Shown: positions 18,986-61,602 of the stretch, piece after piece
Numbering within the stretch: position 1 is the first letter of the stretch
How the letters are laid out: each line of letters opens with the position of its first letter
Translations under genes and position numbers: made by a program
From: a virus
Taxonomy: Duplodnaviria; Heunggongvirae; Uroviricota; Caudoviricetes
Virus record (IMG/VR): IMGVR_UViG_3300005660_000003
Span: 10,261 to 74,260 of that record
Length of the DNA stretch: 64,000 nucleotides
Direction: 5' to 3' (one strand)
Notes under the pieces: model-generated
Database searches by the model: none
What the model was told of the DNA's origin: nothing
What the model saw: the letters and a program-made list of their open reading frames with translations, nothing else

Positions 18986-19096
18986 TGAGTCCGGCAGGAT
19001 TCGAACCTACAATCTACTAATCCCCGAGCACTTCTTGTTTACGGGAAAATTCGAAGCACAGTATAGTGTGCCGCGTTTGCATTTCGCCACAGACTC
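18986..19096 (-). ncRNA. tRNA-like element of atypical length (111 nt): good acceptor stem and T arm (gtagg-ttcgaat-cctgc) but oversized interior with extra hairpins
   Basis: Acceptor gagtctg/cggactc pairs over 7 bp. The interior contains hairpins gcaca-ctatac-tgtgc and cccg-N15-cggg. It cannot be folded by hand into a canonical cloverleaf. Confidence 0.3.
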
Positions 19097-35395: not shown

Positions 35396-35741
35396 CATAG
35401 CTGACTCTATAAAAAATGTTGCTAACACTGAGAATATAAGTAATATTGAGCTTGAAAAGGCTTACATTGCTTACATGGGTGCGTATCAATATGGAAAACT
35501 ACTTGACTTTGAAGGCTGTGAAGACTTCGCTGAATTATTTGACAAGATGCGGCTCGTTACCACTCGCCTACAATATGTTAGGAATGCTAAACTGAGTGAT
35601 GCGGCCTATGCAGAATTAAAAGAATTCGAAAAAGATGATAAGGGAAACCCCATTCCTTTTGATTCCGAGCATCAGGCTGCCTTTATGGAGAAGGCTTATC
35701 AAGTAGCGGAAGGTCTAAAGGCAGCAATTGAACGTGAATAA
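35313..35741 (+). CDS. secreted hypothetical protein (start uncertain, overlaps upstream ORF)
   Basis: Signal-peptide-like N-terminus. 142 aa. Confidence 0.35.
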   Translation: MLIRNFFIFTAICVSQILVIAQTSPQSNIADSIKNVANTENISNIELEKAYIAYMGAYQYGKLLDFEGCEDFAELFDKMRLVTTRLQYVRNAKLSDAAYAELKEFEKDDKGNPIPFDSEHQAAFMEKAYQVAEGLKAAIERE

Positions 35742-46616: not shown

Positions 46617-47303
46617 CTAAACTAAAAAATCACCAAGTAATTTGCCGGGTATTAAAAATTTGGTGTGGGACTCTTTGTTTTTATCATTTAGATAAGACAA
46701 ATGATCTATGCCAGTTCCATAATGCATGGCAAAAAAGTCCCTTTTCTTTACTGCTGGGTAAAAATATTCCATTTCTTGCCACTCGGTGTCTTTCCTAGAT
46801 AATGGGCGTGGCCAATCATCTAATACTAATTCTTTTCTTATGCAAAAGTAAGAAGATTTTATAACAAAGGTATACTTCTTACCAAAGCCAATGTGCGGGC
46901 AAATTAATCCAATGGACTTATTCCCCTGAAACATATCGTTATATTCTTTTAGCCAGCCACCTCTTTTAGAAACCGCCATTTCTGCTATGAAAAAATAATA
47001 TTGATAATCACTCTTTAATACTTCTAAGTAACCTGCTCTATATGCTCCAATATCTTCACCGACATTTTGTCTTTCAAAGTATTTTATATTACTATATCTT
47101 TTGTCTAGGGCAATTCCCATTTTAGAAATGGTGTCAATTTCTTCCCGACTTCTTGATCTTCTATTTTGTATGTTTGTTTCAAACTTATTGTGAATTATAA
47201 ATATGTCGTGATCAAAACCTAAGTCAAAACTAAGTAAAGATTTAAGACATCGAGATACTCTATTGTAGTGAAAAGCTGGAACTATTAAACAAAATTTATT
47301 CAA
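46617..47303 (-). CDS. putative glycosyltransferase (GT-A-like)
   Basis: N-terminus CLIVPAFHYNRVSRCLKSL resembles the GT2 start. Confidence 0.4.
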   Translation of the reverse strand: MNKFCLIVPAFHYNRVSRCLKSLLSFDLGFDHDIFIIHNKFETNIQNRRSRSREEIDTISKMGIALDKRYSNIKYFERQNVGEDIGAYRAGYLEVLKSDYQYYFFIAEMAVSKRGGWLKEYNDMFQGNKSIGLICPHIGFGKKYTFVIKSSYFCIRKELVLDDWPRPLSRKDTEWQEMEYFYPAVKKRDFFAMHYGTGIDHLSYLNDKNKESHTKFLIPGKLLGDFLV

Positions 47304-47310
47304 GGTGATC

Positions 47311-47856
47311 TCATTTTTTTCTTAGTAAGCAGGAAGTATTTGCGTCTGTAGAAATGATTTTAACAATTTCGAAATCGAATCCAAATAAGTAAGTGAAAGC
47401 ATCCTTACTTAATCTCCAGTAGTCTCCAAAGCTTCCTGCTTCCCCATGATAATCTGGTGCCTTGGGACCCCAAGGTGAATCGACTATAACATATCCACCC
47501 CTATTTAATAAAGCATCAAAAGCTTCTGATAGCTCAGTAATGTGTGGTATATGTTCTATTACTTGAGTGATGTGGATTAGGTCGTAAGTAATTCCATTAG
47601 ACCAGTCGGTTGGTTCTACAATATTCCCAACAATATCTGGCTCCCATTTTTTATCAAAATCTAAAGTGGTTAGTGTATACCTACTAAATAGACGGGGATT
47701 GTCTAAGCCCGGCTTACCTTTATGGGTTCGCGGATTACCAGCGGTCCCTACCATTAACATGGTAGGATTTAATAAAGTTACATTGTTTAGATTGATAATA
47801 GCGGCAAAATCCGCTTCAGCGGCTTCGCAGTCTTGTCTCGTTTGGCTTTTACTCAT
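47311..47856 (-). CDS. putative methyltransferase-like protein
   Basis: 181-aa ORF. Weak class I MTase-like features. Confidence 0.35.
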   Translation of the reverse strand: MSKSQTRQDCEAAEADFAAIINLNNVTLLNPTMLMVGTAGNPRTHKGKPGLDNPRLFSRYTLTTLDFDKKWEPDIVGNIVEPTDWSNGITYDLIHITQVIEHIPHITELSEAFDALLNRGGYVIVDSPWGPKAPDYHGEAGSFGDYWRLSKDAFTYLFGFDFEIVKIISTDANTSCLLRKK

Positions 47857-48425
47857 TTATATATTTTTCCCCAGATTTCTGAACAATGTCTATATTTTTC
47901 TATTAGGCAATATTTATATCCAATGTTATCTAGTATTTTAATCAATTGTTCTTTATCTTTTATTGGTGATGTGTGGGAAGGGTTATATTTTTCAACCTCT
48001 TCTTTTGTTTCACCAATTGGCACAATAAAGAATAAGACTTTACGAACAACATTAATAAGAGTTTTCAGGGCCACTTCTAGGTCTAGGGCGTGTTCTAAAG
48101 TATGAGAACAAAATATATAATCAATGGATCCTTCTTCAAATTCACACAGTGTATGAAAATCTGAATTCAAAACTATGTGTCCACGCTCCTTAGCCTTGGC
48201 CAACTTTTCATCTGATAAATCTACACCAATTATATTGATAAATCCCATATCTTTGAGAGCATCTAAACCTCTACCTTCACCACATCCCACGTCTAATACG
48301 TGGGCTTCACGATCTATATCTTTGAAGGTTTCTCGTATTGCGGCTTCTATTGAGTCTCCCCAAGGTGATCCATATGACCAAGCAGATCCAGACACTTGGA
48401 TATCTATGTATTCTTTATCTAACAA
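47853..48425 (-). CDS. class I SAM-dependent methyltransferase
   Basis: [11 protein letters not shown]...GVDLS...[10 protein letters not shown] (Methyltransf_11-like). Confidence 0.7.
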
Positions 48426-48711
48426 GGTGATTCCTTATTCCATTGAGGGTATTAAAATTAACAAGGAAAATAGAAAATTTAAGAGAAAAGGTATGACTTG
48501 GGAAAACCGTGGAAAGGGCGGCTGGCATATTGATCATGTTCTTCCGTATGCAAGTTTCGATCTTTCAGACCCTGAACAACAGAAGATTTGTTTCCATTAC
48601 ACAAACCTACAACCATTATGGGCTACTACCGCGATTGCAATGAGCTACGGGGAAGGGTCAGAATATGTTGGAAACATTGAAAATCTGATAAACCCTATCC
48701 TCTTAATTTAA
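48406..48711 (+). pseudogene. HNH endonuclease remnant (HNH domain only)
   Basis: [46 protein letters not shown] with no N-terminal DNA-binding modules. The ORF-track frame overlaps the opposite-strand MTase. Confidence 0.5.
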
Positions 48712-49504
48712 AATAATCTTTATACCTTAAAGTTTGCGAAAGCGTGCCCTCGTTATGCTCAACGTAAATAGCTGTATCTAAATAATACATAGGGATGCTA
48801 TTATGTTGAGCGTACGTAGACAAATCCCCATCCTCTGTGCCAGAAATTCTACCACTTTTATCTAGATCGTTTGGAAATGTAAACCCTTCATAAATTTCTC
48901 TACGGGCAAATCTACATATTCCACCGACATGATGTACCCTGCGTAACTGGTAATATGAATCATTTTCTTCGTCATGTATAGAGGAGTGAGCATACCCCTT
49001 AACACCACAAAGATTATTCTGTAAGCCCCCAACCATTGGTGCCCAAATACTTTTACCCAACACGCTATCAAGAAACATACAATGACTAAAGAAATCCTTG
49101 CTAATAATCTTGCAGTCATCGTCAAACTTAAGGGTTAATTTTCCGGACAAATGCGGGACAATATAATTTATTCCCGCCCCTATGCCAATATTTTGTGGTA
49201 ATTCGTGGGCAATTACGTCAAAGTTCTTAAGCCCTAGGTCATATAGATTATTTTTGCAACCTTGGAAAATGACGTGATGTTCAATTGTAATGGGGTTTTC
49301 AGTGTGGATTGACAACATTTCTGCTTCATAGGTGGCTTGCCCAACCGAAGACACGCAGTCTCGTAAGTACTTATCCCGCCCGCCCAAAGTCATTGTAAAG
49401 ATAGATATATCCAAATTACCTTTTCCTTTTTCCAAGTTTCTCGTATGGGATTGTATGATGACATTCTCTACTATGTTGATAACAGTGGTCTCCACAAGAA
49501 TCAT
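48695..49504 (-). CDS. hypothetical protein (possibly glycan-modifying)
   Basis: 269-aa ORF in the glycosyltransferase island. Confidence 0.4.
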
Positions 49505-49751
49505 TCCAGTACCTTATACTAGAAGATCCGCAGTATAAACAAAGTCTACCAACAACCTTATATAGATTTGCAAATATAATTTCATCTAACTCTTGTTGGG
49601 TAAATAAAGAGTATGATTTTGCCCGCACATCTGATGCCGTTATCATCTCAAAAACCGCAGAAGTCATGTCGTCAGATTTGGGTGAATTTGGATATAAATA
49701 TTTACTATTCAAGTCTTTATCCCTTATCCAAAACCTTATCACACGCAACAC
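49416..49751 (-). CDS. Cys/His-rich hypothetical protein
   Basis: 111 aa. CxxC...C..HC...H..ECHH. Confidence 0.35.
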   Translation of the reverse strand: MLRVIRFWIRDKDLNSKYLYPNSPKSDDMTSAVFEMITASDVRAKSYSLFTQQELDEIIFANLYKVVGRLCLYCGSSSIRYWNDSCGDHCYQHSRECHHTIPYEKLGKRKR

Positions 49752-49877
49752 AAAACTCTACCCAATCACCATTTATCCCAAAAATCAACTCTTTATCTTT
49801 TTCTATATACTGGTAGGATGCCAGCCTAATGATTTGTTTTATTTGAGCACACCTTCTAGCTATGCTCACTTCGTGAT

Positions 49878-50117
49878 TCAAGATTGTATCCTTTTTGTTG
49901 ATTTATCAACAGCTTCAAAACAATCTGCCTCGTGGAGTTCTCCAGTAATACTAACTAACCATCGATTAGTTAAAGCTGACCATACTATGTTATCTATCGT
50001 ATAATTATGACCAGCGATACACTTACAATTCCCATTTTCTATTCCATTTATGCATACTTCTATCGCATCCTTTATACAAAATATCTTTTCACCTATACCA
50101 AAGGGCTGAGATTGCAT
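49878..50117 (-). CDS. hypothetical protein
   Basis: 79-aa ORF. Confidence 0.3.
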   Translation of the reverse strand: MQSQPFGIGEKIFCIKDAIEVCINGIENGNCKCIAGHNYTIDNIVWSALTNRWLVSITGELHEADCFEAVDKSTKRIQS

Positions 50118-50422
50118 TAAAACACCACCCCTAATTTTTCTAATTCTTCCTTATTCTCTTTGACTTTTTCGTTATTTATTCTTCTTTTCTGGTTGATTAT
50201 GGTAACTATTGTTGGGCACCCAATTTGTATTAGAGCGGGACAAATAAAGGATATGGACGAAACCTGAAGAAATGATTTACTGATAATACATGAAATAAAG
50301 AAAAAACAAATTTGTAAAAGGGTTATATTAAACCACGCTTCATATAAATCTATTTCTAATTTAGGCTTTGGCAAGCTGTAAGAATAGCATTTTAATGGAA
50401 GTGGATGGTAAGGATTATGCAT
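50117..50422 (-). CDS. hypothetical membrane protein
   Basis: 101-aa ORF. Confidence 0.3.
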   Translation of the reverse strand: MHNPYHPLPLKCYSYSLPKPKLEIDLYEAWFNITLLQICFFFISCIISKSFLQVSSISFICPALIQIGCPTIVTIINQKRRINNEKVKENKEELEKLGVVF

Positions 50423-50611
50423 ACAATATGATCTCTATAAAACACACTGGAACATTTTTAGAAAAAGGTGTAGCTGAAGCCACATAGATCACTTCTATCG
50501 AAGAATCTTGTTCACAAGTATCAGTAGAAATGTATACAAAATATTTATTCTCTTGTAGCCAAACCCCATAAATTGACACGGTCAGCATCAAATTTCGTGC
50601 AAGTGCGGGGT

Positions 50612-51319
50612 TCATACCCCGCTCCAATCAACAAAAGGAGATAGGAAGGGCTCATGGCAATGTGTTGAGGCACCCAACATGGGAGTAAAAAGCACTACGT
50701 GATTCTTACGAAGAAAACGAAACAATTCCCTATCTTGTAGCCCAAAAGACTTCGCTAACTTATACACCTTATCTAGATACAACCCTTGGGAAATTGCCCA
50801 CGTACAAGTGGTGCTTTCGGCAGTTCTCCAATATTTAAGATTTCCAAGTCTAATTAAAGTTTGGTGAAAATCTATGTCGTCGGTTCTTAGTAGTCTATCT
50901 AAATGATCATAAAGACTTATAACATTATCTTTATTTATGGCGTCAGCCACCTCAAATCCCTCTTTAAGTACTGCAAATGCGTCGTCAGTATGTAGGTAAT
51001 CATCTTCAACAAAATAAATAACATCTGTTTGTGGCAATTTTGCGGCAAAGTCTAAGCAATACTGAAGAGATCCGGCGTTAGAATTCAAATTTATTTTTTC
51101 AATATTAATGTCACAAAAATCTAGATGGGTATGCAGTTGTCCTTTTTCACCGTCGTGAACAGCAGTAAGAATAATTTCATCTTCTTTTGTAATTCCTTGT
51201 GGGTCATATTTAAAAACACCCAGTAAATTATCTAAACACTTTAGCTTAGAGAACCACCTTGGTCTAGCGTCCAGCTTTGTATCTAGTTCGCAACACCTGT
51301 AAATTACGTGTAGTTTCAT
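50612..51319 (-). CDS. hypothetical protein (possible GT-A glycosyltransferase, EDDY motif)
   Basis: 235-aa ORF. Confidence 0.35.
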   Translation of the reverse strand: MKLHVIYRCCELDTKLDARPRWFSKLKCLDNLLGVFKYDPQGITKEDEIILTAVHDGEKGQLHTHLDFCDINIEKINLNSNAGSLQYCLDFAAKLPQTDVIYFVEDDYLHTDDAFAVLKEGFEVADAINKDNVISLYDHLDRLLRTDDIDFHQTLIRLGNLKYWRTAESTTCTWAISQGLYLDKVYKLAKSFGLQDRELFRFLRKNHVVLFTPMLGASTHCHEPFLSPFVDWSGV

Positions 51320-51634
51320 ATAAATGTTTTACTTTTTTCCTGTGTTAAGTTCATTAATAAACAAAATTAAGATAAAACCGAAAATAAATAAATTTAAAAA
51401 TGGTATTAAACACCAAATTGATCCCCAGAAAGCGTTTGATACTGACGGATAATCTTTTATAAATGAATTATATATTTCGCCCAAAGACAATGCTGCGAAC
51501 GAGATAAGTAATGATACAAATTTCTATACTCATATTGGTAGCCCTACAGTTATTTTTTTAAATCATTCAAGCCATTCCTTAAACTTTGGTATGTAGTGGG
51601 CGGGTACATTGATATTGTAGGTGATCTACTACGT

Positions 51635-51979
51635 TCATTTTAATTCCAACTTAATCTTTACTTTTGCCTTAATCTTTTTAACAAAAATGTGATTATTAAA
51701 AGATTCTAGGTCATTTCCGCTCTCAACTGACATTCTATATGTAGAATTCTCTTCATCATACCACAAAGATACAGGAAACTCATTACAGCCACACCCAATA
51801 AAGTACGTAGGATTCGGGTCGTCTTCTCTTTGTGTATTAACCATTTGGAAAATAGTTCCCTGTTTTGCCCCATACATTTGCATTGGGCGAAGCAACTTTA
51901 TCTTTTTATCACTATCTTCTTTTTTTACTATTTTAATTTTCAAAATTATTTCTCCTAAGGTGTGTAAGCTCTTGCCCAC
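51635..51979 (-). CDS. hypothetical protein
   Basis: 114-aa ORF. Confidence 0.4.
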   Translation of the reverse strand: MGKSLHTLGEIILKIKIVKKEDSDKKIKLLRPMQMYGAKQGTIFQMVNTQREDDPNPTYFIGCGCNEFPVSLWYDEENSTYRMSVESGNDLESFNNHIFVKKIKAKVKIKLELK

Positions 51980-52081
51980 TTAATAAGTTCTCGTCCAGAA
52001 ACTTCTTTCTCTTTCATGTGTGAAAAAGTGGGGTAGGTTATTACAAATTTCTTTCTACTCAACTTTTCTACTTTACAACCT

Positions 52082-52333
52082 CTATCCTGTAGTATCTTCA
52101 TAGCTTTCTTGGTTTTCAAAGTCTGCACTCCCTACGTAGTGGGCACCAACAATTTCCGTTAAAGCTTCTATGCTGTAATTTATACTGGCGTTTGCACAAA
52201 GTAACACCTCCATATCTTTATTAAAATCTCTAAACACAGCGATATCTAGCCTAGACTTATTAAGGCTATCTTGTATTTGTTGGATTTCTTTGTTTGAATA
52301 ATCGGCAGTGTCTACAATGATTGAACGCCTCAT
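52082..52333 (-). CDS. hypothetical protein
   Basis: 83-aa ORF with a 4-nt overlap. Confidence 0.35.
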   Translation of the reverse strand: MRRSIIVDTADYSNKEIQQIQDSLNKSRLDIAVFRDFNKDMEVLLCANASINYSIEALTEIVGAHYVGSADFENQESYEDTTG

Positions 52334-53040
52334 GAAAATAGCTCCTTGTGCTTTTCGTCTATATATGCCATTGCTGAAAAATTAAAACTACCGTGGAACA
52401 TAAAAGATTTATAAGTACTTAGATCCCCATATTCATGAGGATCTTCTTTAATTGGACGCTCCACACTAAATCTACGGGCTAATTCAATACTAGGAAATTT
52501 AATACCCTTATTATTTTCTAAAAACTTTCTTGCTGTGACAGAAATAAACCAGTCTTCATTACTTATTATAAATCCACTCTGAGGTATTAAATCAGCCATT
52601 TGGGATGAGGCTTCTAGTAGCTTTTTTGATCGCAGACAAGCACCACCGTTAAAACCCGTGTGTTCATTATCCCAACAGGCCCCAATGTAATCATACAACA
52701 AGAACTCCTCAATCCAAAGATCTGGATTTATTATACAAGAATCCCATTGTTGAACTAGGCAAAAATCCGTATCAATAAAGTTAACAAGGTGTTTTAAAAT
52801 CCAATAAGAATAGGTCCCGTCGGCTTTGTATTCTGCCCATTTAATTACGGGATGGGTAAACTCTTGCGGACATATGATGAGGGCTTTTTCAAAAGAAAAG
52901 GACGCGAGCGACACCTCCATAGCCTTTATGGTTTGCTCTAAAAAATCTTGCGTATGGATTATTGATACTAGTGTTATTAATTTAGAAGGCATTCTACTCC
53001 TCCTCCTCGTCGTTGTCCTCTTCCTCTTCTTCGGTCTCAA
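52330..53040 (-). CDS. hypothetical protein
   Basis: 236-aa ORF. Confidence 0.45.
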   Translation of the reverse strand: MRPKKRKRTTTRRRSRMPSKLITLVSIIHTQDFLEQTIKAMEVSLASFSFEKALIICPQEFTHPVIKWAEYKADGTYSYWILKHLVNFIDTDFCLVQQWDSCIINPDLWIEEFLLYDYIGACWDNEHTGFNGGACLRSKKLLEASSQMADLIPQSGFIISNEDWFISVTARKFLENNKGIKFPSIELARRFSVERPIKEDPHEYGDLSTYKSFMFHGSFNFSAMAYIDEKHKELFS

Positions 53041-53347
53041 AATTATCTAGATCGCATACAAAATTGAGATTTGTCATACGAACAAACTCCTGCAATAAAT
53101 CATACATCTTATTGTGCTTATCGCTAGTGTAAAAATTAAGGCGTCCATTATAATTTGTTAAGGATTGCTGACTTAGACCTCTTTCACCATTAATAAGTTC
53201 TTGGAAAATAAAAGGTGAGTTACTTATATCATTTATTATTTCAATAGCTATTTGAAATGCTTCTAGTAGTGACTCCTTAGTATTCATGGTCACTAATTCG
53301 GCAAATCTTTTTGATAAATCTACAGTTTCTTTGTTTGCTATGATCAA
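52994..53347 (-). CDS. hypothetical protein with poly-Glu/Asp C-terminal tail
   Basis: 117 aa ending EEEEEDNDEEEE. Confidence 0.4.
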   Translation of the reverse strand: MIIANKETVDLSKRFAELVTMNTKESLLEAFQIAIEIINDISNSPFIFQELINGERGLSQQSLTNYNGRLNFYTSDKHNKMYDLLQEFVRMTNLNFVCDLDNFETEEEEEDNDEEEE

Positions 53348-54366
53348 GAGAGTAATTCCTTAAAAATGCGTGCTGTATTTTCCCAAGAGAACATCTTTGA
53401 AATTTGTATTCCTGTAATATTAACCTTATAGCCATTCTTATAGGAGGCTCTAAGGGCTTCAACAAGGTGATTTATGTCGAAGACGCCCCAATTTCCTTGT
53501 CCGAAAAACCACTTGTCATCAAATGCAGGTGTAAGACTAGTAACAGGAATAAGCGTCGAGTTATGTCCATTACAAAATTCTGTGTGCCCAGCATAGTCAG
53601 TAACAATTACTTCCTTGCCACACGCCATCATTTCTAAGGTTTCTAATCCCCACCCCTCAGCTTTAGAAGGGAAAACGCCGCAACTAACAGTGTTCATTAT
53701 TCGGGCTAAATCTTGCTGGGTTTTAAATGGGCCAACAAACTTTATCTTTTTAGCCTTACCCATTGGGGTATTCATGTATTTGTATCTAATACGGCCCATG
53801 AATTCTGTATCATGGAAAATGTTATTCATAGACATCCATAGCTCAACATTGTCCGTAGGTTTAAACGCAAGATTAAAAGCTTCTACTATTTCATCCTGAG
53901 ATTTTCTTATTTCCCACTTACCAGCAGAAAAGAAGATGTGTACATTTGGTGTGTGTTCTACCTCGTGAAATATATCGCGATCAACACCAAGTGGAACCAC
54001 TTTAACAGGAGTAGTAATACCGTTGTTTTTTACAACCCCTTTTGCCCACTCAGTACACACCCATATCTCATCAACACTAGATAGGTGGGCTTTTTCAATA
54101 TTGTTAAACGTATCTAATTCAAAAATGGTATAACCTATACGTTTATTTTTGCCCACCATCATAAGGTCAAACTGATGGAATAATCTAACTGTTGGTAAAG
54201 ATAGATCGTAAGGTTTGCTTCCTATGAATTTGTTAGTAATAGATTGCGGCAATCCGAAGGATGGTTGCCCTATTGGTATAATATTACAATCTAAATGTTT
54301 TGCAATATTTAGGGCAACCAATCCATATGAAGTTATATTACTTATAGGAGCGTTAAAATTAAACAA
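53344..54366 (-). CDS. glycosyltransferase family 1 (GT-B)
   Basis: EGWGLETLEMMACGKEVIVTD matches the GT1/GT4 E-x7-E motif. Confidence 0.7.
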   Translation of the reverse strand: MFNFNAPISNITSYGLVALNIAKHLDCNIIPIGQPSFGLPQSITNKFIGSKPYDLSLPTVRLFHQFDLMMVGKNKRIGYTIFELDTFNNIEKAHLSSVDEIWVCTEWAKGVVKNNGITTPVKVVPLGVDRDIFHEVEHTPNVHIFFSAGKWEIRKSQDEIVEAFNLAFKPTDNVELWMSMNNIFHDTEFMGRIRYKYMNTPMGKAKKIKFVGPFKTQQDLARIMNTVSCGVFPSKAEGWGLETLEMMACGKEVIVTDYAGHTEFCNGHNSTLIPVTSLTPAFDDKWFFGQGNWGVFDINHLVEALRASYKNGYKVNITGIQISKMFSWENTARIFKELLS

Positions 54367-54754
54367 GGTCTAAACTTGCTAGACGACTTTGCAGGTCGTT
54401 AATTTTTCTTGCTCTAGCTGGCAACATAGCATTAATAACCTCTCTTATTTTTATTGCCTCTGGAGATTTACCGCCTTCTTGTGACCAAATTTCTTTTGTT
54501 CTAGCATCGGTTGTGCTAAATTTTTGTTTGGTAAGGTGATTCCTTAATGGATGAAGTACGTCGTTTCTAAATTTTTGTGACGCAACAAGATCCTTCTTTT
54601 CATCTTCATCGGTGTATCCTAAATACTTCCTGCAGTCTAATAGAGTACCCGCTGAACTCTTTGCCACTTCTCTTACAAACTTAATCTTTCGAAGATCTGC
54701 GTCTGTAACAGATACACAAACAGTTTCAAAAATTTCTTTCAATTTGTCATTCAT
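54359..54754 (-). CDS. hypothetical protein
   Basis: 131-aa ORF. Confidence 0.4.
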   Translation of the reverse strand: MNDKLKEIFETVCVSVTDADLRKIKFVREVAKSSAGTLLDCRKYLGYTDEDEKKDLVASQKFRNDVLHPLRNHLTKQKFSTTDARTKEIWSQEGGKSPEAIKIREVINAMLPARARKINDLQSRLASLDLV

Positions 54755-55355
54755 CTTTTAATTTTCCTTTATAAACAAAAGAGTTTTTATTGTATGACCA
54801 GACACAATTTTCTGGATCATATAAATAATCTGCTTCAAGATAATACCCATTTTTATCTACTATTGGGCAACAACAACCGTTTTCTAATTTGTAGTTTGGG
54901 GTCATTTTTTTACACAACACACAAGGCTTAAGATCAGTTTCTTCATCTTCTGGGTGCCAATATCCACTATCACTATACTCAGATATTACACTATGCAGTA
55001 TTTGGGGAAAGATGGGAAGTGTTTTACTGTTGTGTAATGTACTGTATAAACCCCCTGTGCAAAATTTATTGTAGCACTCACCACTAAATCTAACTGAACA
55101 ACCAATATCAACATTGGGGTGGTGATAATTAAAGTAAAGACGTAACTCGTGTGAAGGTTCTACTAACATTCTTGGTTTTTCAAAACTGAAAAAACGATCA
55201 CAACTTGACTCACCATCTTCATCTTCATCTTTTGTGGCTACACAGGTTATTGGTTTAAATTCATATAGAGTGTAATTATTATTACTCTGCTTAATCTTCC
55301 TAGGTTTTTTTAACAATACATCCAACATAAAATTCCCCAAAAGGTATATTAACAC
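54747..55355 (-). CDS. Cys-rich hypothetical protein immediately downstream of the E1-like gene
   Basis: 202 aa with multiple Cys clusters (CVLCKK...GCCCP). Confidence 0.4.
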   Translation of the reverse strand: MLIYLLGNFMLDVLLKKPRKIKQSNNNYTLYEFKPITCVATKDEDEDGESSCDRFFSFEKPRMLVEPSHELRLYFNYHHPNVDIGCSVRFSGECYNKFCTGGLYSTLHNSKTLPIFPQILHSVISEYSDSGYWHPEDEETDLKPCVLCKKMTPNYKLENGCCCPIVDKNGYYLEADYLYDPENCVWSYNKNSFVYKGKLKDE

Positions 55356-55441
55356 CGTAGTAATTTTGTAATATATGTGTGTCCCTTGCAGTACAAGTCT
55401 TTAAGAAATCTAGTAGATCTTTGTCCGCACACACATTTATA

Positions 55442-56164
55442 TTACTTCTGTTCGTTGTTATTGTTACAGTTACCAAAGTACTCATCTGGGTTCTCCGGAG
55501 ATAAAACAGAATTAATAGAACAAAAACTCAACATCCTGTGAACGGGCCAACCTTTTCCACCCATCAAATTGGCGAATTGATTAACGCTGGTCCCAGCTGC
55601 AATGTTGGCTATATAGTTACTCATTGGTTGAACGCACCCAAAACTTGCTGATTCACTTGATGGGAAAATGGTTTTGAGATACCAATCATTAGTAGTCTCC
55701 ATGTCTTTTACAGTAAGAATTTGAGCAACAGAAGCCCCGATTCTAACATCAAAGAAATATTTGCACTTATCCCTGTAGTAGTTATACAGGAGTTTCCTTA
55801 TATCAATGTTGTCTACGGTACTCCATACTGCGTCATAGGTGGTGTTTTTCCCCACTATTCTAGGGGCCCATTTATTAGGGTAAGCACTTACTTTAATGGC
55901 TTCGCCCATTTGGGAAACAATTTCTTCAGCTAGAACTTCTACCTTTGTCTTGCCACAATCACCCTGTGACCAATTCTGAGGAATTATATTGTGCGCTTCT
56001 ACAATGTCATTATCAACTAAATCAATAGACTTGACTCCAAGTCTAGCTACACAACTCGCTACGTTTCTACCTATAGCCCCACATCCGACAATTAAGACCC
56101 GTACTTCTTCTAGGTTTTTAGCAGGGCAGAAGTACTCTTGGCGAGAATAGAAAGCCGCGCTCAT
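55442..56164 (-). CDS. E1-like (ThiF/MoeB/UBA superfamily) adenylating enzyme
   Basis: Rossmann motif VLIVGCGAIGRNVASCVARLGVKSIDLVDNDIVE. 4-nt overlap with the JAB gene. Confidence 0.7.
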   Translation of the reverse strand: MSAAFYSRQEYFCPAKNLEEVRVLIVGCGAIGRNVASCVARLGVKSIDLVDNDIVEAHNIIPQNWSQGDCGKTKVEVLAEEIVSQMGEAIKVSAYPNKWAPRIVGKNTTYDAVWSTVDNIDIRKLLYNYYRDKCKYFFDVRIGASVAQILTVKDMETTNDWYLKTIFPSSESASFGCVQPMSNYIANIAAGTSVNQFANLMGGKGWPVHRMLSFCSINSVLSPENPDEYFGNCNNNNEQK

Positions 56165-57285
56165 TTGAAATCTCCTGTATTAATTTTACTTGCTGTATCT
56201 TTAAATTGTGGATACTTTAATCCCGCTGTATTAATGGCTTTTACTCTGTCAAGTTTATTATTACTTTTATAGGCTATCTGGAAATCTTTTTCTAACAAAT
56301 CCCCGTGTATAGCTCCGAGAATAACAGATATTCCATCCATTGGATTATAAGGGTTGTCAAACTCAAATATTCTTTCCATGCTCTGCAAGGATGTAATATC
56401 CTCTATGTCTGCGAATGCAGCTTTCATTCTTTGTAGCTCGTTGTCAGTCATCACCCTAAATGATTCTCGGTGCTCTCCTAACTCGAGTAGCATTTCTGGG
56501 ATTATTTCCGGGGACGCACTTTTTTTAAAACTATTTTTAGCGGGTTGGTAATGACTATGGTTTCCACCATATCCTTGATACCCGCTTCTTATTACTGTGT
56601 AAGTATCTGGGCTAACTAATTTGTCATATTCAGTAATCAGTTCGTTAAATTCTGGGAAAATTTCAATTAGTGAAACATGTGGGAGGAGTGACTTCTTAGC
56701 TTTTTCCATACCCAATTTATCTACAGCCCTTTCCCCAAAAATATTTTTTAAACCTGTTAAAATTTTAGCATCGTATCCTTCATCTTTAATAATTTCAACA
56801 GGTATCTCTTTTTCTACTTCATACGGATGATCTAGCCCGTTTACTGATGTGCTAAGATTACCTCTAACTCTCAGTTTACAGGTAATTTGTCCTGTCTTTG
56901 ACAGGATCATCATTACCATAAAATTTTTCATAGCGTTATCTTGGTCGTTCCAAGTGCTCATATCTTTACCAGAGGGATTAGCTGAACTATCTCCAGTCAT
57001 TGGGTGAGTATGACACCAAACTCTTTCACAGTTAATAGGTGGTATTCCCGCCATAGCGTTAGTTTCTATATATTCCGCCATATACTCGGGGCAACAATCG
57101 GAACTAGTTGAATTTACTTTTTGTTTTACGATCCTGAAATCATAAACATGAAGTGGGTTTTCTTTGTGGGTGATTCCAAACATTGTAATTTCTGAGTCTT
57201 TGTGGTCTCTCATAAATACAAACTTATCAAATGCATACGCATCAATTTTAAGTGTAAGTTCTTTTTTGGGTGTAGTTGTGTTCAT
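56161..57285 (-). CDS. JAB/JAMM (MPN+) metallopeptidase with C-terminal extension (deconjugating/processing enzyme)
   Basis: E...HTHPMTGDSSANPSGKD fits E-x(n)-H-x-H-x(10)-S-x2-D. Confidence 0.65.
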   Translation of the reverse strand: MNTTTPKKELTLKIDAYAFDKFVFMRDHKDSEITMFGITHKENPLHVYDFRIVKQKVNSTSSDCCPEYMAEYIETNAMAGIPPINCERVWCHTHPMTGDSSANPSGKDMSTWNDQDNAMKNFMVMMILSKTGQITCKLRVRGNLSTSVNGLDHPYEVEKEIPVEIIKDEGYDAKILTGLKNIFGERAVDKLGMEKAKKSLLPHVSLIEIFPEFNELITEYDKLVSPDTYTVIRSGYQGYGGNHSHYQPAKNSFKKSASPEIIPEMLLELGEHRESFRVMTDNELQRMKAAFADIEDITSLQSMERIFEFDNPYNPMDGISVILGAIHGDLLEKDFQIAYKSNNKLDRVKAINTAGLKYPQFKDTASKINTGDFK

Positions 57286-58196
57286 ACTTTAATCTCTTCC
57301 TTTTCTTGACAAACTTCACAGATTGCCTTGTTGTTTATGGTAAAGTAATACGGGGTGGTTTTTTCACAAACTGAACACTTTTTAATGCAATTTAGGGAAT
57401 AAAATTTCCCATCAATTTCTTCAGAACAATCCTTGTGTATAATTGCTTTTGTTTTTTCACAACTAATTTGTTCTCCGTCAAATTGGTAGCAAACAGAGCA
57501 CTTTTGTCCTACCCAATTATCTATGTACGCCCCGCTCCAATTAAGTGAGTTAGCATTATACCTACATAGTAATCCACAGACATTGTACAAAATTGACATT
57601 ATATCAAATTTTTGGGTATCTGCTCCCGATAGACGCGGATTTAGATATCCTCCTAGGCACAGCCCTCCATTTGGTCCTATGTGTGGGTGAAAACAACTTT
57701 TACCCCCAATGTTTCGCGGGTTATTTTCTCCACTTGGAGTACTTACTGCAGATAGACCTACTGAACGTGGAGAACTACTAACGTAATCGTCGAAATATAA
57801 TCTTGTTTTAAATAGTCCTAGGTCTACTGTTAGGTTAGTATTTGTTTGGTGGTTTTTTTCTGATATTACGGCTCTAGATTCAAACATAATTGTTGATACA
57901 TACTCATCCATTTCTAGCATTGTAAAATCGTGCTTTTTAACTAATCCATCATAAAGGCTATCGAAGCCTTCTCTACTTACAGCCTTTAAGGGTTCGCGAT
58001 AGTATGTATCGCCATAGTTGGCCAATGTATTTACCGCAGAAGAAAGTTCTCGGATTGTTCTACTTCTAGCTTTTTCTAGTGTTTTGTAGCTTGTGTCTAT
58101 TACTGGAAGATGTTCATTCTCCCATTTTTTTCTTCTCGAACACCCAATAGTGTATTGTCCATAGAATTTTTCTTTAGTTAACATCACACGCTCCAC
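57282..58196 (-). CDS. E2-like (UBC-fold) conjugating enzyme with C-terminal Cys-rich zinc-ribbon domain
   Basis: CFHPHIGPNGGLCLGGYL matches the UBC active-site motif FHPNI...G.ICLDIL, with a candidate catalytic Cys. Confidence 0.65.
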   Translation of the reverse strand: MERVMLTKEKFYGQYTIGCSRRKKWENEHLPVIDTSYKTLEKARSRTIRELSSAVNTLANYGDTYYREPLKAVSREGFDSLYDGLVKKHDFTMLEMDEYVSTIMFESRAVISEKNHQTNTNLTVDLGLFKTRLYFDDYVSSSPRSVGLSAVSTPSGENNPRNIGGKSCFHPHIGPNGGLCLGGYLNPRLSGADTQKFDIMSILYNVCGLLCRYNANSLNWSGAYIDNWVGQKCSVCYQFDGEQISCEKTKAIIHKDCSEEIDGKFYSLNCIKKCSVCEKTTPYYFTINNKAICEVCQEKEEIKV

Positions 58197-59061
58197 ATAT
58201 TACTACATCAGATTTAATAATCCAATCCACTTTATCTTTTTTGCACACATAGCATTCTTTAACCATTGCTGGATTGTAAATAGTCCCATTTATTACCTTA
58301 CCACAGTTTGCGTGTAGGATCATGCCGGTTTTAGGGCAGGTAATCATGTTCTTCTTGGAGTATTCCTCGCATACGCAACATTTTCTACCAATAAAATTTT
58401 CCATTGAACTAGCAATGTATGACGAATTAAACACCGATAACTGTTTTATAATGTTATCAATTATATCATAAAAGAACTTGTTTGTATCAAATGCTTTTGT
58501 AAAAATGGCATAATGTATGAACTCTCCGTATATATCAAAATATGGATGTTTTATTTTTCCATCAGTTTTTAATTTAATTATTCTTGGATGTAAAATATTT
58601 TCTTTACTAGTAAAAGTAACATGAATTGGGAAATTTTCAAATTGTAGGGTCCAAAACTCACCTGTCTTTATATTTTTATTATGTAAATTTAAATCAACAC
58701 TAAAATATAAACTTTGGTTACCGGAATGTTTTATAAATTTTATGCTTGGGTACTTTTCTTCTAGTTCTTTTATTTGAGAATCTAGTGTGGCAGGGTTGAA
58801 TTCTTCAAAAGAATTTAAGTAATCCAAATCTATGTCTGAATATTTCGACATATTATCTCGTATCTCTGGATACTTTCTTTTTTCAATATATTCGTCAATT
58901 TTGTTTTTTTCTTTATGTAATCTGATTATCTTTGAAAGTAGGAGGTCGTATACATGTTGTAAGGCATGGTTTTCTTTAAGCGTATTTATTTGCTCAAGAA
59001 AAGCCTCTGTGTATACACTCTTATCTAGTGCGGGTTTTTTTGTTGGCATTGCTGTTACCAA
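58174..59061 (-). CDS. E2-like paralog lacking the catalytic Cys (UEV-like?), same C-terminal Cys-rich zinc-ribbon domain
   Basis: Same two-domain architecture as 57282..58196. The HP-containing loop ILHPRIIKLKTDGKIKHP has no Cys. Confidence 0.45.
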   Translation of the reverse strand: MVTAMPTKKPALDKSVYTEAFLEQINTLKENHALQHVYDLLLSKIIRLHKEKNKIDEYIEKRKYPEIRDNMSKYSDIDLDYLNSFEEFNPATLDSQIKELEEKYPSIKFIKHSGNQSLYFSVDLNLHNKNIKTGEFWTLQFENFPIHVTFTSKENILHPRIIKLKTDGKIKHPYFDIYGEFIHYAIFTKAFDTNKFFYDIIDNIIKQLSVFNSSYIASSMENFIGRKCCVCEEYSKKNMITCPKTGMILHANCGKVINGTIYNPAMVKECYVCKKDKVDWIIKSDVVICGACDVN

Positions 59062-59221
59062 GAGATTACTCCGTAAGAAAATTTTTAAATAATTAAAGTA
59101 GGTGGAGCGTTTCCACGAAGATGGTTATTGTTCCGAGTATAAAGTTTGCGCAAGTATTACAAACAAAGTAAAAGGGGTGGAATTAAATTCCACCCCTTTA
59201 TCCTTAAGCGGTCAGACTATT

Positions 59222-59437
59222 TTAGCCTGCATCGACCTTGCCCAAGCTCACAGTCAAAATATCGCCGTCACCAAGAGGCGTTTCTGTGTTTGCCTGCATT
59301 CCGTTCACGCGATATACAGATCCGCTTGGAGCCCCAACTCGTGAGCCAGCAGCCCCCGCAGTAGAGCCGTGAGACAGGGTTACTGATACCTGATTGCCGT
59401 CTGAAAAAGCCTTGATAACGTTTACTGTAATGTTCAA
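59222..59437 (-). CDS. ubiquitin-like beta-grasp protein (ThiS/MoaD-like), C-terminus ...GKVDAG
   Basis: 71 aa. PLGDGDILTVSLGKVDAG resembles the ThiS/MoaD C-terminal ...DGD.I....V.GG. First gene of the E2-E2-JAB-E1 chain. Confidence 0.6.
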   Translation of the reverse strand: MNITVNVIKAFSDGNQVSVTLSHGSTAGAAGSRVGAPSGSVYRVNGMQANTETPLGDGDILTVSLGKVDAG

Positions 59438-59528
59438 GTGATTACTCCAACTAAAAAACCAAAAAGATGTGGGTGGCCAACATTAACCACCCACTGAAAA
59501 CTAATCTCGGACTTTCGTCCTTCAAATA

Positions 59529-59942
59529 CTACTCAGCTTTTGGAGCTGGCACTGACCAAATCAGGTCGTCGTTTGTTGGAACAAGCAATCCCGCACACTG
59601 TGCGAACTGAATAGCAGACTGCTTAGCTCCAACCGCAGCAGCCAAGCAGAATATGTTCTGCGTTGACTGAGCGTGCGCAGCGGCCACATTGATTCTGTCA
59701 ATTTCTTTATGCACACTTGCCAACTCATCCTCAAGGTTCTTCTTGGCCCGAGCCAACGCTGTGGAACGGTTTTGAGCTGATGTAAGAACACCAACAGTAA
59801 ACCCTTCCAATTTTTCAAGAGCAGCAGCCTGCTTCTTTGCCAAAGCCTTACCAATTACGTCTGAACCAAACGTAGATGGGGCAATAACATCCGCAACAGT
59901 CAAAGTTGACAACGGATTCACAACACTCGTACTTTCACTCAT
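59529..59942 (-). CDS. Ala-rich hypothetical protein (start assigned to the internal Met with RBS; ORF-track start at 60011 is less likely)
   Basis: agggaag lies 8 nt upstream of the ATG at 59942. Coiled-coil-like Ala/Lys/Glu-rich sequence. GC-rich. Confidence 0.4.
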   Translation of the reverse strand: MSESTSVVNPLSTLTVADVIAPSTFGSDVIGKALAKKQAAALEKLEGFTVGVLTSAQNRSTALARAKKNLEDELASVHKEIDRINVAAAHAQSTQNIFCLAAAVGAKQSAIQFAQCAGLLVPTNDDLIWSVPAPKAE

Positions 59943-60010
59943 AAAACTTCCCTTTGCAAAGGAAACTATAAAATGGGAGCAACTACATATTACCCCCGGT
60001 AAACTACACA

Positions 60011-60583
60011 CTAATCACCAAAGCCATCATTAAGTAAAAATGGCCTTTGTGGACTCGAATCAGAAATTGTCCAACTAATTTCTGGACTTCTTAATTGATT
60101 TTTGTTTTTAACTACACCTATAATCTTCCTGTCGAAATTAGGTAAAAGCATTTCTATCTTATTGTTATTATTTATCGACAATTCAAAATCTTGGAAAGCG
60201 AAACTTTTTGAGTCTTTATCATACGGTATGTTTTTCGTATAATATAGAAATGAAAAGTTTGTTTTGTCTTCGGTTTCTTTTAACCCTGTAATCACGCAGG
60301 AGAATATATGGTCGCACGCCAATGAAATCGCATATGGAAAACCATCTATCGTACGTTGGAATTTAGTGTGCCCAGTAAATCTTACTGAAGATCCATCGTA
60401 AATATTAATTACCTCGGCGTATCCTTCTGGGGTAATTTGTACGTATACCCTTCTACCATCTGGATTTTTCTTATTCGTAAAGAAATGTAGATCATTGCTA
60501 TATGTTTTTCCAACATATGTATGGTCAAACATTCTTCCCCATTTATGAAGTAGTGGGTGACTTTTATACTGTAATTGCGTCAT
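60011..60583 (-). CDS. hypothetical protein
   Basis: 190-aa ORF. Confidence 0.45.
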   Translation of the reverse strand: MTQLQYKSHPLLHKWGRMFDHTYVGKTYSNDLHFFTNKKNPDGRRVYVQITPEGYAEVINIYDGSSVRFTGHTKFQRTIDGFPYAISLACDHIFSCVITGLKETEDKTNFSFLYYTKNIPYDKDSKSFAFQDFELSINNNNKIEMLLPNFDRKIIGVVKNKNQLRSPEISWTISDSSPQRPFLLNDGFGD

Positions 60584-60606
60584 AAAAACTTTCTAAGAAA
60601 AGGGTG

Positions 60607-61029
60607 TTATGTTTGAAGAGACAATCTCTTCTTTATTTCACTAAAAGTAGAAGAGTTGCAGGATGCTCCGTTAAGAAAGATGGAGGTCAACTCTCCCTCT
60701 TTTTCCTGCTCCGGTGAACAATCATTAAGTAACACAAGGACTCCATTGTCTCTTTTGATTACTGAAAGTAATCCTTTTGCGGACTTCTTCATGCCATCGC
60801 CAGTTTTTGGATCTTTAAAGATGCTCTTGGCTACGCCAGAGATTTGGACCCAAGTAGCCTTGCAGGCAATAGAATATGTATCACGGGTAACATATTGGTA
60901 TGTGTAAGACCCAATACCAAACACTACATTAGTGGAAGCAAAACCCTTGTCGGCTAGTAATTTGCAAATTTGTTCACACCTATAGATGATTGGTGTGAAT
61001 AAATAAGCATTCAGGGATACCAGAAGCAT
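60607..61029 (-). pseudogene. nadV: C-terminal remnant (about 140 aa) of nicotinamide phosphoribosyltransferase NadV/NAMPT
   Basis: GIGS...QYVTRDTYSIACKATWVQISGVAKSIFKDPKTGDGMKKSAKGLLSV...TFSEIKKRL aligns by eye to the NAMPT C-terminus (GSGGG...LTRDLLNCSFK......VFKDP...KRSKKGRLSL...SFDEIRKN). The N-terminal ~350 aa are absent. Confidence 0.5.
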
Positions 61030-61357
61030 CCATTTCTACATCATCTAATATTAAGATCTTACCACTAACTGGGTTGCTTGCGATCCAGCTCTTGATCTCA
61101 TCTATTCTCCAACTACCCTCTATATCTGTACAGGGCAATATTGGCGTATGATCAAAGATAGTAAGCCCCGCCCACAATAACTCACTTCTTACGCGGGTTA
61201 TTGAGGCTGGGTGTCTACGCTAATCAGAAGAAAGAACTATCTTAGAACTGGTGCTCTCTACGAGAAATTTCAACAGTAGCAACTTGTCATTCTCAAAAGG
61301 TGTTTCGCTTATTGAGCGATTAAGAACACCATCCACGTCTAAGAAAATAATGTTCAC
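60980..61357 (-). pseudogene. small HAD-superfamily phosphatase with an in-frame TAG at codon 46 (probable TGG to TAG in the conserved SSDWR motif); GTG start overlapping upstream stop (GTGA)
   Basis: Hand translation: VNIIFLDVDGVLN...KIVLSSD*RRH...KILILDD.... HAD motifs I (DxDGxL) and IV (DD) are present. The ORF track shows only the post-stop part (60980..61177). Confidence 0.5.
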
Positions 61358-61602
61358 GCCGTTTTCCCACCAATTCCAAATTTTCTAACATCTTCTCTTG
61401 GGTTTACTACCCTAATCTTTTCGACTAGAATATTATCAATACTATCTATCAATTCTTCCGTTAGTTTTCCCAAATTTTTCCTTTCGGCAACGCTTGGGAT
61501 TCCCTCAACGGTAATTGAAAAATCTGTATTTTGATAACTACCAGAAGATATTTTAACTGATCTTGTTACAGTTACACTTTTGATTATCATGAAAATGCCC
61601 AA
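61354..61602 (-). CDS. hypothetical protein
   Basis: 82-aa ORF. Confidence 0.4.
   Translation of the reverse strand: MGIFMIIKSVTVTRSVKISSGSYQNTDFSITVEGIPSVAERKNLGKLTEELIDSIDNILVEKIRVVNPREDVRKFGIGGKTA

Follow-up and report, generated by a model that had tools for sequence, protein, structure and literature searches.

A probable ubiquitin-like protein-conjugation cascade encoded in the genome of a large phage

Complete cascades in which a ubiquitin-like protein (Ubl) works with an E1, an E2 and a deubiquitinase (DUB) have so far been characterized in the prokaryotic world either as bacterial anti-phage systems, namely the Bil (bacterial ISG15-like) and Bub operons and Cap2/Cap3 of the cyclic oligonucleotide-based antiphage signaling systems (CBASS), or as archaeal relatives of the eukaryotic system. 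The locus considered here lies in a phage-like genome. At positions 55442-59437 of a 64,000-nt stretch (the window) of the IMG/VR record IMGVR_UViG_3300005660_000003 (record positions 10,261-74,260), five consecutive genes code for a Ubl, an E2-like protein, an E2, a JAB/JAMM metallopeptidase and an E1, and it is judged likely that they make up a bona fide ubiquitin-like protein-conjugation cascade encoded by a large phage.

The Bil operons, BilABCD, are described as type I and type II (Millman 2022; Chambers 2024; Hor 2024; PMC10557695). Their gene order, Ubl-E2-JAB(DUB)-E1, is common to both them and the window, which adds an E2-like gene between the Ubl and the E2 (PMC10557695), and the Cys-based chemistry of Bil is predicted for the window as well. 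In BilA the reactive glycine is freed by trimming of the tail, the Gly97-Ala98 end having been shown experimentally to be trimmed by BilC (PMC10557695), and the distant phage Ubls related to that of the window end comparably in G-A(x). On the other hand, the E1 of Bil, BilD, consists of an inactive and an active adenylation domain with an inserted CYS domain (PMC10557695), an architecture that the window E1 does not have, and neither the Ubl nor the E2 of the window shows recognizable kinship in sequence or structure to BilA or BilB. The genomic location also differs, Bil operons being placed in bacterial defence islands and the window cassette in a phage-like genome. A preliminary description of the window, made from its sequence, had called the locus Bil/Bub-type; the Bil half of that comparison stands as far as the gene order is concerned (PMC10557695), but the Bub half has to be dropped, since Bub ('6E/DUF6527') combines serine/oxyester chemistry with a serine protease and with an E1 that is fused to a peptidase. 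Membership in the type II CBASS Cap2/Cap3 systems was likewise considered and rejected, E1 and E2 being separate genes in the window and a CD-NTase being absent from the locus and its relatives. The E1 does match the PADLOC models of the CBASS Cap2 E1-E2 protein (3e-16), in the adenylation domain only, and no PADLOC model was matched by the Ubl or the E2s.

By composition, the nearest described operons are those of the Caldiarchaeum type, that is, the E1/E2/RING-E3/Rpn11 operons of Caldiarchaeum subterraneum and other archaea (Nunoura 2011, PMC3082918; Hennell James 2017; Fuchs 2018). Both are compact and have a Ubl processed (in the window, by prediction) by a JAMM peptidase, and in both a small E1 goes together with a UBC E2 and with a zinc finger of the RING type, which in the window is fused to the E2; the structure model of the window Ubl resembles the Caldiarchaeum ubiquitin (template-modeling (TM) score 0.76), and the JAB profile resembles the Rpn11-like protein. 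The presence of an active E2 beside a Cys-less UBC paralog, in which the loss of the cysteine is kept in all orthologs, recalls the eukaryotic Ubc13-Mms2/Uev1 pair, from which the window differs in that the likeness is one of genes alone and in that the pseudo-E2 is missing from two related loci, L002 and L007. Archaeal sampylation (SAMP1/2, UbaA, JAMM1) and the TtuB/TtuC system of Thermus are alike in having a SAMP2-like Ubl, a minimal MoeB-like E1 and a JAMM peptidase; these systems, however, have no E2 and double as sulfur carriers, whereas the window system is always accompanied by UBC-like proteins and has no sulfur-transfer partners. Among phages, lambda and T1 encode TAPI, a beta-grasp Ubl with a conserved C-terminal Gly, and the adjoining TAPK, a JAB plus NlpC/P60 protein (Iyer 2006, PMC1779556), with Ubl-X fusions presumably being cut after the Gly (PMC1779556), but these genes have no E1 or E2, lie inside the tail gene cluster and do not form a conjugation cascade. 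No account of a complete phage-encoded Ubl-E2-JAB-E1 system was found in a literature search whose coverage was not exhaustive, the nearest item being ThiF/E1 homologs alone in Asgard archaeal viruses. In its workings, as predicted, the window system would resemble the Bil and archaeal ubiquitination cascades, yet it falls outside Bil, Bub and Cap2/3.

The modifier and its enzymes

All five minus-strand open reading frames (ORFs) listed in the preliminary description were recovered together with the motifs quoted for them, and each of the five products has homologs at syntenic loci from independent metagenomes. The first gene (59222-59437, minus strand) codes for the 71-aa modifier, which had been proposed to be a beta-grasp protein of the ThiS/MoaD type and is better described as ThiS/MoaD/SAMP type. 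Its AlphaFold2 model (predicted local distance difference test (pLDDT) score 92.8) has the bb-a-bb-b topology of the beta-grasp, followed by a floppy tail (residues 65-71) of low pLDDT. Foldseek matches this model to MoaD (3.3e-4), the Caldiarchaeum ubiquitin, SUMO, NEDD8 and ISG15, with a probability of 1.00 and TM scores of 0.6-0.76. The single sequence finds nothing significant, a weak TGS match (0.2) aside, and a family profile built from 24 homologs finds SAMP2 (5lda_B, 1.4e-4), PF1061 (2.5e-4) and MoaD (0.0095).

The C-terminal tail of the modifier bears on conjugation. The window protein ends in ...GKVDAG, and the homologs (n=25) have the tail K-x-x-x-G followed by 0-6 extra residues. 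Members of the window's subgroup carry nothing, C, R, SV or SI beyond DAG, and those of a second, more distant one carry A, AV, AVA, ASIL, AR or AHRRAA beyond the Gly. Variable residues past a conserved Gly are the mark of a precursor that is trimmed by a DUB, as BilA is by BilC, and the pattern therefore looks like the hallmark of a trimmed and conjugated Ubl. The window protein itself already terminates in Gly, so that trimming is not required. No internal Lys is conserved in the family except K67 in the tail.

Directly upstream lies p137 (59529-59942, minus strand), an Ala-rich, coiled-coil-like protein of 137 aa that is a conserved partner 5' of the Ubl, being found immediately 5' of the Ubl gene in the related loci L003, L004/L005, L008 and L010 as well. 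The 156-kb contig L002 has a fusion in which a ...KG|AD... junction links the Ubl domain to a p137 homolog on its C-terminal side, an arrangement that recalls the ubiquitin-ribosomal protein fusions. Invariant residues of p137 include K107, within a 'G.K' motif, and a C-terminal VP..D...W, and searches of Pfam, PHROG, NCBIfam and PDB returned no relative. The adjacency, the matching terminator architecture, the natural fusion to Ubl and the invariant Lys107 together make p137 the best single candidate, on thin evidence, for a substrate or cofactor of the Ubl system.

The E2 (57282-58196, minus strand; 304 aa, or 300 aa if the ATG at 58184 is used) carries the signature FHPHIGPNGGLCL; its UBC core is preceded by a helical hairpin at the N terminus and followed by a cross-brace two-zinc finger at the C terminus. 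The features of the UBC fold are present (alpha1, a 4-stranded sheet, the active-site loop and helix 2), and the active site is formed by HPH (residues 170-172) and Cys180 (codon 57657-57659); H170, P171, H172 and C180 are invariant in 25 orthologs and align to HPN...C of UBE2D2, which bears out the earlier call of a UBC-like E2. Equally invariant in these orthologs are eight zinc ligands arranged as four pairs in the C-terminal 70 residues (C233 C236 / H254 C257 / C274 C277 / C293 C296), and their pattern, together with fold similarity, assigns the finger to the cross-brace binuclear type (RING/PHD/FYVE). The E2 has no match in Pfam, PHROG, PADLOC or NCBIfam. When the protein is compared with PDB on its own the matches are weak (E ~0.3-0.5), every one of them being a UBE2D enzyme aligned at the active site, and the family profile reaches UBE2D2 (0.013) and dozens of other E2s over the segment running from HPN through the Cys to helix 2.

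The E2-like protein (58174-59061, minus strand; 295 aa), which had been noted as lacking the catalytic Cys, is a Cys-less UBC paralog of the E2 with a C-terminal zinc finger, comparable to a ubiquitin E2 variant (UEV). It aligns to the E2 by BLASTP over the UBC core and the Zn domain (5e-14, 26% identity over 189 aa) and gives a weak zf-RING_16 match. As the active-site Cys is absent in 6/6 orthologs of the E2-like protein, where HPY is retained, and present in 7/7 orthologs of the E2, the protein is to be regarded as a conserved pseudo-E2 and not as a decayed copy. Downstream of the E1, a further gene (E2c, 54747-55328, minus strand; ~193 aa) codes for what is provisionally taken as a probable third UBC-like protein. 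It has an HHPN motif, a 17-residue loop and a Cys in the context FCTGG, with P69, C88 and G90 invariant in five orthologs (HPN...C.G), and profile-profile comparison with hhalign aligns it to the E2 family over a stretch that starts at the Cys, takes in helix 2 and ends at the first CxxC (79.5% probability, E 1.5e-5); PDB and Pfam give no direct support.

The JAB/JAMM metallopeptidase (56161-57285, minus strand; 374 aa) contains the motif HTHPMTGDSSANPSGKD and consists of an N-terminal MPN+ domain of ~150 aa and a 220-residue C-terminal extension with no known relative. Across 10 relatives E32, H92, H94 and D108 are invariant and S105 nearly so, which amounts to a complete E..HxH..S..D JAMM site; the spacer from HxH to the Ser is 10 residues long versus the usual 7. 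The profile of the N-terminal 150 residues matches Rpn11 (1.8e-4) and also PSMD14, CSN5, BRCC36, AMSH and AfJAMM, and Pfam Prok-JAB matches 8/10 members of the family (best 5.6e-6), in keeping with the JAMM/JAB identity proposed before. Taken alone, the window protein has no Pfam match and reaches CSN5 at 0.008; its matches to the PADLOC JAB models are weak (0.016). Matches of the full-length profile to alanine racemases in PDB were discarded as spurious, the MPN-trimmed profile and the distant members leading to Rpn11.

The E1 (55442-56164, minus strand; 240 aa), with the motif VLIVGCGAIGRN...LVDNDIVE, scores well above the Pfam ThiF cut-off (92.1 bits against 28.1; 3.8e-26; residues 16-202), as the earlier ThiF/E1-like assignment implied, and matches the adenylation domains of MccB (3e-9) and Uba1 (2e-6). 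It is a single ThiF-type adenylation domain, without an inactive adenylation domain, an inserted CYS domain or a UFD. Residues invariant in 10 relatives are the GxGxxG glycines (G27, G29, G32), D51, D53, N59, Q63 and K74, followed by D118, R123, D139, R141 and C177 (codon 55634-55636), the last of which probably occupies the position of the ThiF/MoeB Cys. Although its best NCBIfam matches are ThiF models, the protein stays below all NCBIfam equivalog cut-offs (ThiF, MoeB, UbaA, Cap2), scoring 65.8 against 159 for ThiF and 41.3 against 266 for MoeB. An identification of the locus as a ThiS-ThiF or MoaD-MoeB pair was therefore rejected on account of these scores and of the absence of the partner genes from the locus and its relatives. 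Overall, the E2 and JAB calls did not turn out to concern unrelated folds, the small protein is a beta-grasp, and the locus holds more than a mere E1 plus ThiS pair.

Gene arrangement, relatives and genome setting

The genes belong to a co-oriented minus-strand run that spans 53.3-60.0 kb of the window. The enzyme genes are tightly joined. Between the E2-like and E2 genes there is an overlap of 11 nt, and a GGAG stands 6 nt ahead of the E2 ATG; at the next two junctions, E2/JAB and JAB/E1, the genes overlap by ATGA, and a purine-rich stretch resembling a Shine-Dalgarno sequence precedes each of these overlaps. The coupled operon of enzyme genes runs on through p61, an ORF of 61 aa (55300-55485, minus strand) that shares 44 nt, in another frame, with the 3' end of the E1 gene and 29 nt with the 5' end of E2c, then through E2c, a translationally coupled 131-aa ORF (p131, 54359-54754, minus strand) and a family-1 glycosyltransferase, translationally coupled in turn (53344-54366, minus strand), after which a DUF5672-type gene follows (52330-53040, minus strand). 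The translational coupling that had been ascribed to all five genes thus holds for the four enzymes and their overlaps but not for the Ubl gene, which stands between two hairpins at a distance of 160 nt from the E2-like gene. Similarly, the five genes of the preliminary description do form a module, but its boundaries have to be moved in both directions past 55442-59437, with p137 belonging to it upstream and p61 and the probable E2c downstream.

The hairpins in question are the two strongest terminator-like elements of the region, in which 14 terminator-like sites were found as opposed to 5.0 +/- 2.2 in shuffled sequence. One of them (59469-59494, minus strand; 11 pairs and a T-run) stands in the gap between p137 and the Ubl gene, and the other (59171-59199, minus strand; 13 pairs and a T-run) immediately past the Ubl stop codon; in L003, hairpins occupy the same two positions. 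Being separate, bracketed in this manner and similarly arranged in L003, the Ubl gene looks like a transcription unit of its own, which is probably strongly expressed, and the terminators that bracket it and follow p137 may hint at stoichiometry. The G+C content of the gene is 53-59% versus ~35% around it. Translation is predicted to begin at a TTG with a GGAG 7 nt upstream, a start codon that is not kept in L003. An identical 14-nt initiation region, GGAGTAATC[A/T]CTTG, was observed at two genes, that of the Ubl (59435-59448, minus strand) and that of the E2-like protein (59059-59072, minus strand), both of which have TTG starts; these are the only two matches in the window, against 0.05 expected, and may reflect common translational control. 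A scan of the region for sigma-70 promoters gave 19 sites where 22.5 were expected from shuffles, and Rfam and direct-repeat scans of the region returned nothing relevant.

An exhaustive HMMER search of 1.84 billion protein representatives yielded 41 members of the E2 family, which is therefore rare; a word-indexed protein search, for which the E2 and the alignment of its family served as queries, returned no more than the self-match and one distant member. When the window proteins were mapped by phmmer onto 17 related loci, the 11-gene order p190-p137-Ubl-E2like-E2-JAB-E1-p61-E2c-p131-glycosyltransferase was found in the window, in L001, in L003 and in L008 (a 169-kb contig), with partial versions in L004/L005 and L010. 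L001 is a Logan contig that is 99.9% identical to window positions 47276-60983, whereas protein identity to the window in L003 and L008 ranges over 45-72% (E1 72%, JAB 50%, E2 45%, Ubl 56%, p137 ~51%). The related metagenomic contigs in which the block recurs are 156-169 kb long. Downstream, the order E2c-p131-glycosyltransferase is kept in L003 and L008, and p61 in L003, L004/L005, L008 and L009 (phmmer 1e-5 to 1e-11). The more diverged L002 (27-29% identity) and L007 have no pseudo-E2; L002 retains E2-JAB-E1 and the glycosyltransferase and has, judged by eye, an 86-aa counterpart of p61 after the E1. A core cassette, Ubl-E2(ZnF)-JAB-E1, is also present in distant phage-like contigs of higher G+C (L012, L015/L021, L016, L017/L023), in which the E2 is 361-523 aa long with multiple zinc fingers and an 'HPH...LC.GD' motif, and the neighbors include genes for D5-type primase, AAA_24, RNA ligase, Ro60/TROVE and ClpP. 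Because the 11-gene order is kept in L003 and L008 and the core recurs in the distant contigs, the Ubl block is a selected unit.

The phage-genome setting given in the preliminary description is well founded: the window contains T4-type polynucleotide kinase (Pnk) and endonuclease VII-like genes, several homing endonucleases, a class I ribonucleotide reductase (RNR) with an interrupted large subunit, an ATP-dependent DNA ligase, AAA ATPases and 2-3 tRNAs. Its label 'T4-like', on the other hand, finds no support, as 50,697 deposited phages contained no match to the locus by blastn or to the E2 by tblastn and the nearest deposited-phage proteins are single proteins of unrelated phages with <=38% identity. 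Scans of IMG/VR with the E2 and with the JAB alignment, which reach just fairly close relatives, found none. A eukaryotic giant-virus origin, which the eukaryote-like E2 had brought up, was rejected because the genes have Shine-Dalgarno sequences, ATGA overlaps and intrinsic terminators and stand among neighbors of phage type. The Ubl module is surrounded by nucleotide-metabolism, RNA-repair and other non-structural genes, no structural gene was seen in the window ORFs scanned, and the distant cassettes likewise lie in a metabolic, non-structural part of their genomes. These non-structural neighbors favor an intracellular role in infection, in which phage or host proteins are modified, over one in virion assembly. 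The roles put forward in the preliminary description, such as virion tagging and counter-defence, are speculative. With respect to sulfur transfer, no rhodanese, cysteine desulfurase, ThiG/ThiH, MoaE or TtuA/NcsA was found in the locus or its relatives, and the sole nearby PP-loop gene, 9 kb off and outside the window, is TilS-like and not TtuA/NcsA-like.

Several further observations concern the window at large. The RNR large-subunit ORF (24513-27719, minus strand; 1068 aa) has a PHROG match split into residues 2-435 and 674-1065, the insertion of ~240 residues being probably an intein or a homing-endonuclease domain. A third tRNA-like element of 111 nt (18986-19096, minus strand; Rfam 39.2 bits), missed by ARAGORN, may be a tRNA with an intron or of some other atypical form. 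The density of endonuclease VII-like, HNH and homing-endonuclease genes is unusually high (3441-4250, 5501-6319, 6538-7725 and 35728-36798), and two of them are on the plus strand, breaking the otherwise minus-strand array. Upstream of p137, window positions 60607-61593 and L001 positions 6587-7202 diverge abruptly, with ~600 nt unmatched before 89% identity resumes. Here L001 has a 306-aa NAPRTase-like gene and the window just a 140-aa C-terminal NAPRTase fragment (60607-61029), and a HAD-like gene of the window with a FLDVDGVLN motif is seemingly split by an in-frame stop (61220-61357 and 60980-61177), so that the region looks like a recombination mosaic or a pseudogene.

Among deposited phages, analogous-looking, unannotated genes were observed beside ThiF in three cases. 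The Xanthomonas jumbo phage PhiXhv-15 (L018, PV764602.1, 763-4642) has a ThiF-adjacent 141-aa protein ending in ...ASGG, and also one of 892 aa in which 'IHPH...SLCLGSF' is combined with a Cys-rich tail. In the crAss-like bajarodcaudo virus 1 (L019, PQ006092.1, 538-4669) and in Flavobacterium phage FpV4 (L020, KT876724.1, 619-4630) the genes encode a JAB-like protein (Pfam Prok-JAB 2e-4 and 0.0076) and a Ubl-like N-terminal domain, which ends in KSG(G) and to which an extension is fused. Searches of the ThiF neighbors in cultured phages with the hidden Markov models of the window families (hmmsearch) returned no matches, and hhalign gave weak ones (E2 7e-4 with 26% probability, JAB 0.0078, Ubl 0.41). 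These cassettes are leads, not findings, by which deposited-phage genes labeled 'thiamine biosynthesis protein ThiF' beside 'hypothetical proteins' are flagged as possible similar cassettes.

Proposed mechanism, alternatives and meaning

In the mechanism proposed for the cascade, the E1, probably a homodimer like MoeB, ThiF and UbaA, would adenylate Gly71 of the Ubl, which would then be passed on to Cys177 of the E1 or, as the adenylate, straight to the E2. Cys180 of the E2 would hold the Ubl as a thioester and transfer it to a target lysine, with the FYVE/RING-like finger of the E2 serving as a built-in E3 or as a substrate-binding module, and the Cys-less paralog acting as a UEV-like partner in the way that Mms2 does for Ubc13. 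The JAB would trim the precursors of relatives, in which 1-6 extra residues or a p137 domain follow the Gly, and would probably also undo conjugation, while E2c, the other UBC-like protein that bears a Cys, may act on a different class of targets.

This reading of the locus as a conjugation cascade is built on the folds, catalytic motifs, paralogy, tail pattern, operon structure and synteny that were observed. A number of points weigh against it. Thioester formation, isopeptide conjugates and targets are all predictions from sequence. The E1 does not have the CYS domain and UFD by which canonical and Bil E1s charge their E2s, and the third position of the E2 motif is a His, HPH in place of the canonical HPN. 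The putative JAB is recognized from its motif and profile matches and not from a structure model, E2c is backed by a single profile-profile match (hhalign), and what ties p137 to the Ubl is adjacency and one fusion. In addition, the Ubl gene was missed by the gene caller in L001, though it was called in other contigs.

Three other explanations were weighed. Whereas the conjugation cascade is a biochemical claim, two of the three, defence and counter-defence, are claims about a role, and the four partly overlap. Phages frequently carry defence genes, and the first alternative is that the block is Bil-like defence cargo with which the phage tags the structural proteins of competitor phages, bringing about superinfection exclusion. 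The Ubl-E2-JAB-E1 order is that of Bil, which is known to tag phage tail proteins, and the core cassette occurs in otherwise unrelated phage-like contigs, suggesting mobility. The position and the neighbors of the block, including the lineage-specific p137, p61 and E2c, are nevertheless fixed across relatives whose identity falls to 45% (E2) and to 27-29% (L002), so that it behaves as a core module rather than as an island. Moreover, the architectures of the E1 and E2 are unlike those of Bil, the Ubl and E2s match no PADLOC model, and a GTDB scan of 185,579 bacterial and archaeal genomes with the JAB alignment, the reach of which is limited to fairly close relatives, found no relative. A role as defence cargo is consequently considered rather unlikely.

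More doubtful still is a counter-defence role, in which the JAB would strip Bil or type II CBASS conjugates (of Ubl or CD-NTase) made by the host and the phage Ubl, E1 and E2 would act as decoys or competitors. The resemblance of the E1 to the CBASS Cap2 E1 modules of PADLOC could be cited for it, as could neighbors that may be of an anti-defence kind (Pnk, RNA ligase, the TilS-like protein and NAD salvage). For deconjugation, however, a lone peptidase would be enough, the conserved catalytic residues of E1 and E2 and the dedicated, tail-processed Ubl point to active conjugation, and the similarity of the JAB to the PADLOC JAB models is, as given above, weak.

The least probable of the three is a sulfur carrier, adenylated and thiocarboxylated by the E1 for the thiolation of tRNA, cofactor or DNA with the UBC-like proteins and the JAB as accessories (compare TtuB, Urm1 and SAMP): SAMP2, MoaD and ThiS are the best sequence relatives of the Ubl, some homologs of which are named 'sulfur carrier protein ThiS' by JGI, the E1 is a minimal MoeB/ThiF-type domain with ThiF models as its top NCBIfam matches and the phage encodes tRNAs, but the E1 is far under the equivalog cut-offs, the partner genes are missing and the nearby PP-loop protein is TilS-like, the cassette is always inherited along with 2-3 UBC-like genes whose catalytic Cys is conserved, and the Ubl ends in a single Gly after Ala and not in the GG typical of carriers. 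Conjugation is preferred over sulfur transfer because of these 2-3 UBC-like genes, because the catalytic Cys is kept in 7/7 E2 orthologs, and because of the 0-6-residue extensions of the Ubl tails, the Ubl-p137 fusion and the lack of any sulfur partner nearby.

Taken a step beyond the biochemistry of the conjugation cascade, the balance tips modestly toward a broader proposal, according to which an uncultured lineage of large phages has a ubiquitination pathway of its own that is eukaryote-like and composed of a trimmed Ubl, a minimal E1, an E2 joined to a RING/FYVE-type finger as an E2-E3 in one polypeptide, a UEV-like pseudo-E2 and an Rpn11-like peptidase, and uses it to tag phage or host proteins in infection, with more distant analogues maybe in crAss-like, Flavobacterium and Xanthomonas jumbo phages. 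With five core proteins of ~1,280 residues in all, the system is small and tractable, and it could be used to address how a canonical-looking E2 is charged by a minimal E1 that has neither CYS domain nor UFD, what role the fusion of E2 and finger has, and what the conserved pseudo-E2 contributes. The nearest solved relatives of its proteins are eukaryotic (UbcH7, Pex4, UBE2S, Rpn11, CSN5) or archaeal (SAMP2, Caldiarchaeum ubiquitin) and do not belong to Bil or Bub, so that the family matters for the question of where the eukaryotic ubiquitin toolkit came from. A cascade conserved in the phage's own genome reverses the direction expected from the bacterial anti-phage systems, as it would be the virus that tags proteins. 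If this is true, ubiquitin-type tagging would be a weapon on both sides of the conflict between phages and bacteria, and viruses would be a reservoir of E2, RING and JAMM combinations bearing on how the eukaryotic system was assembled.

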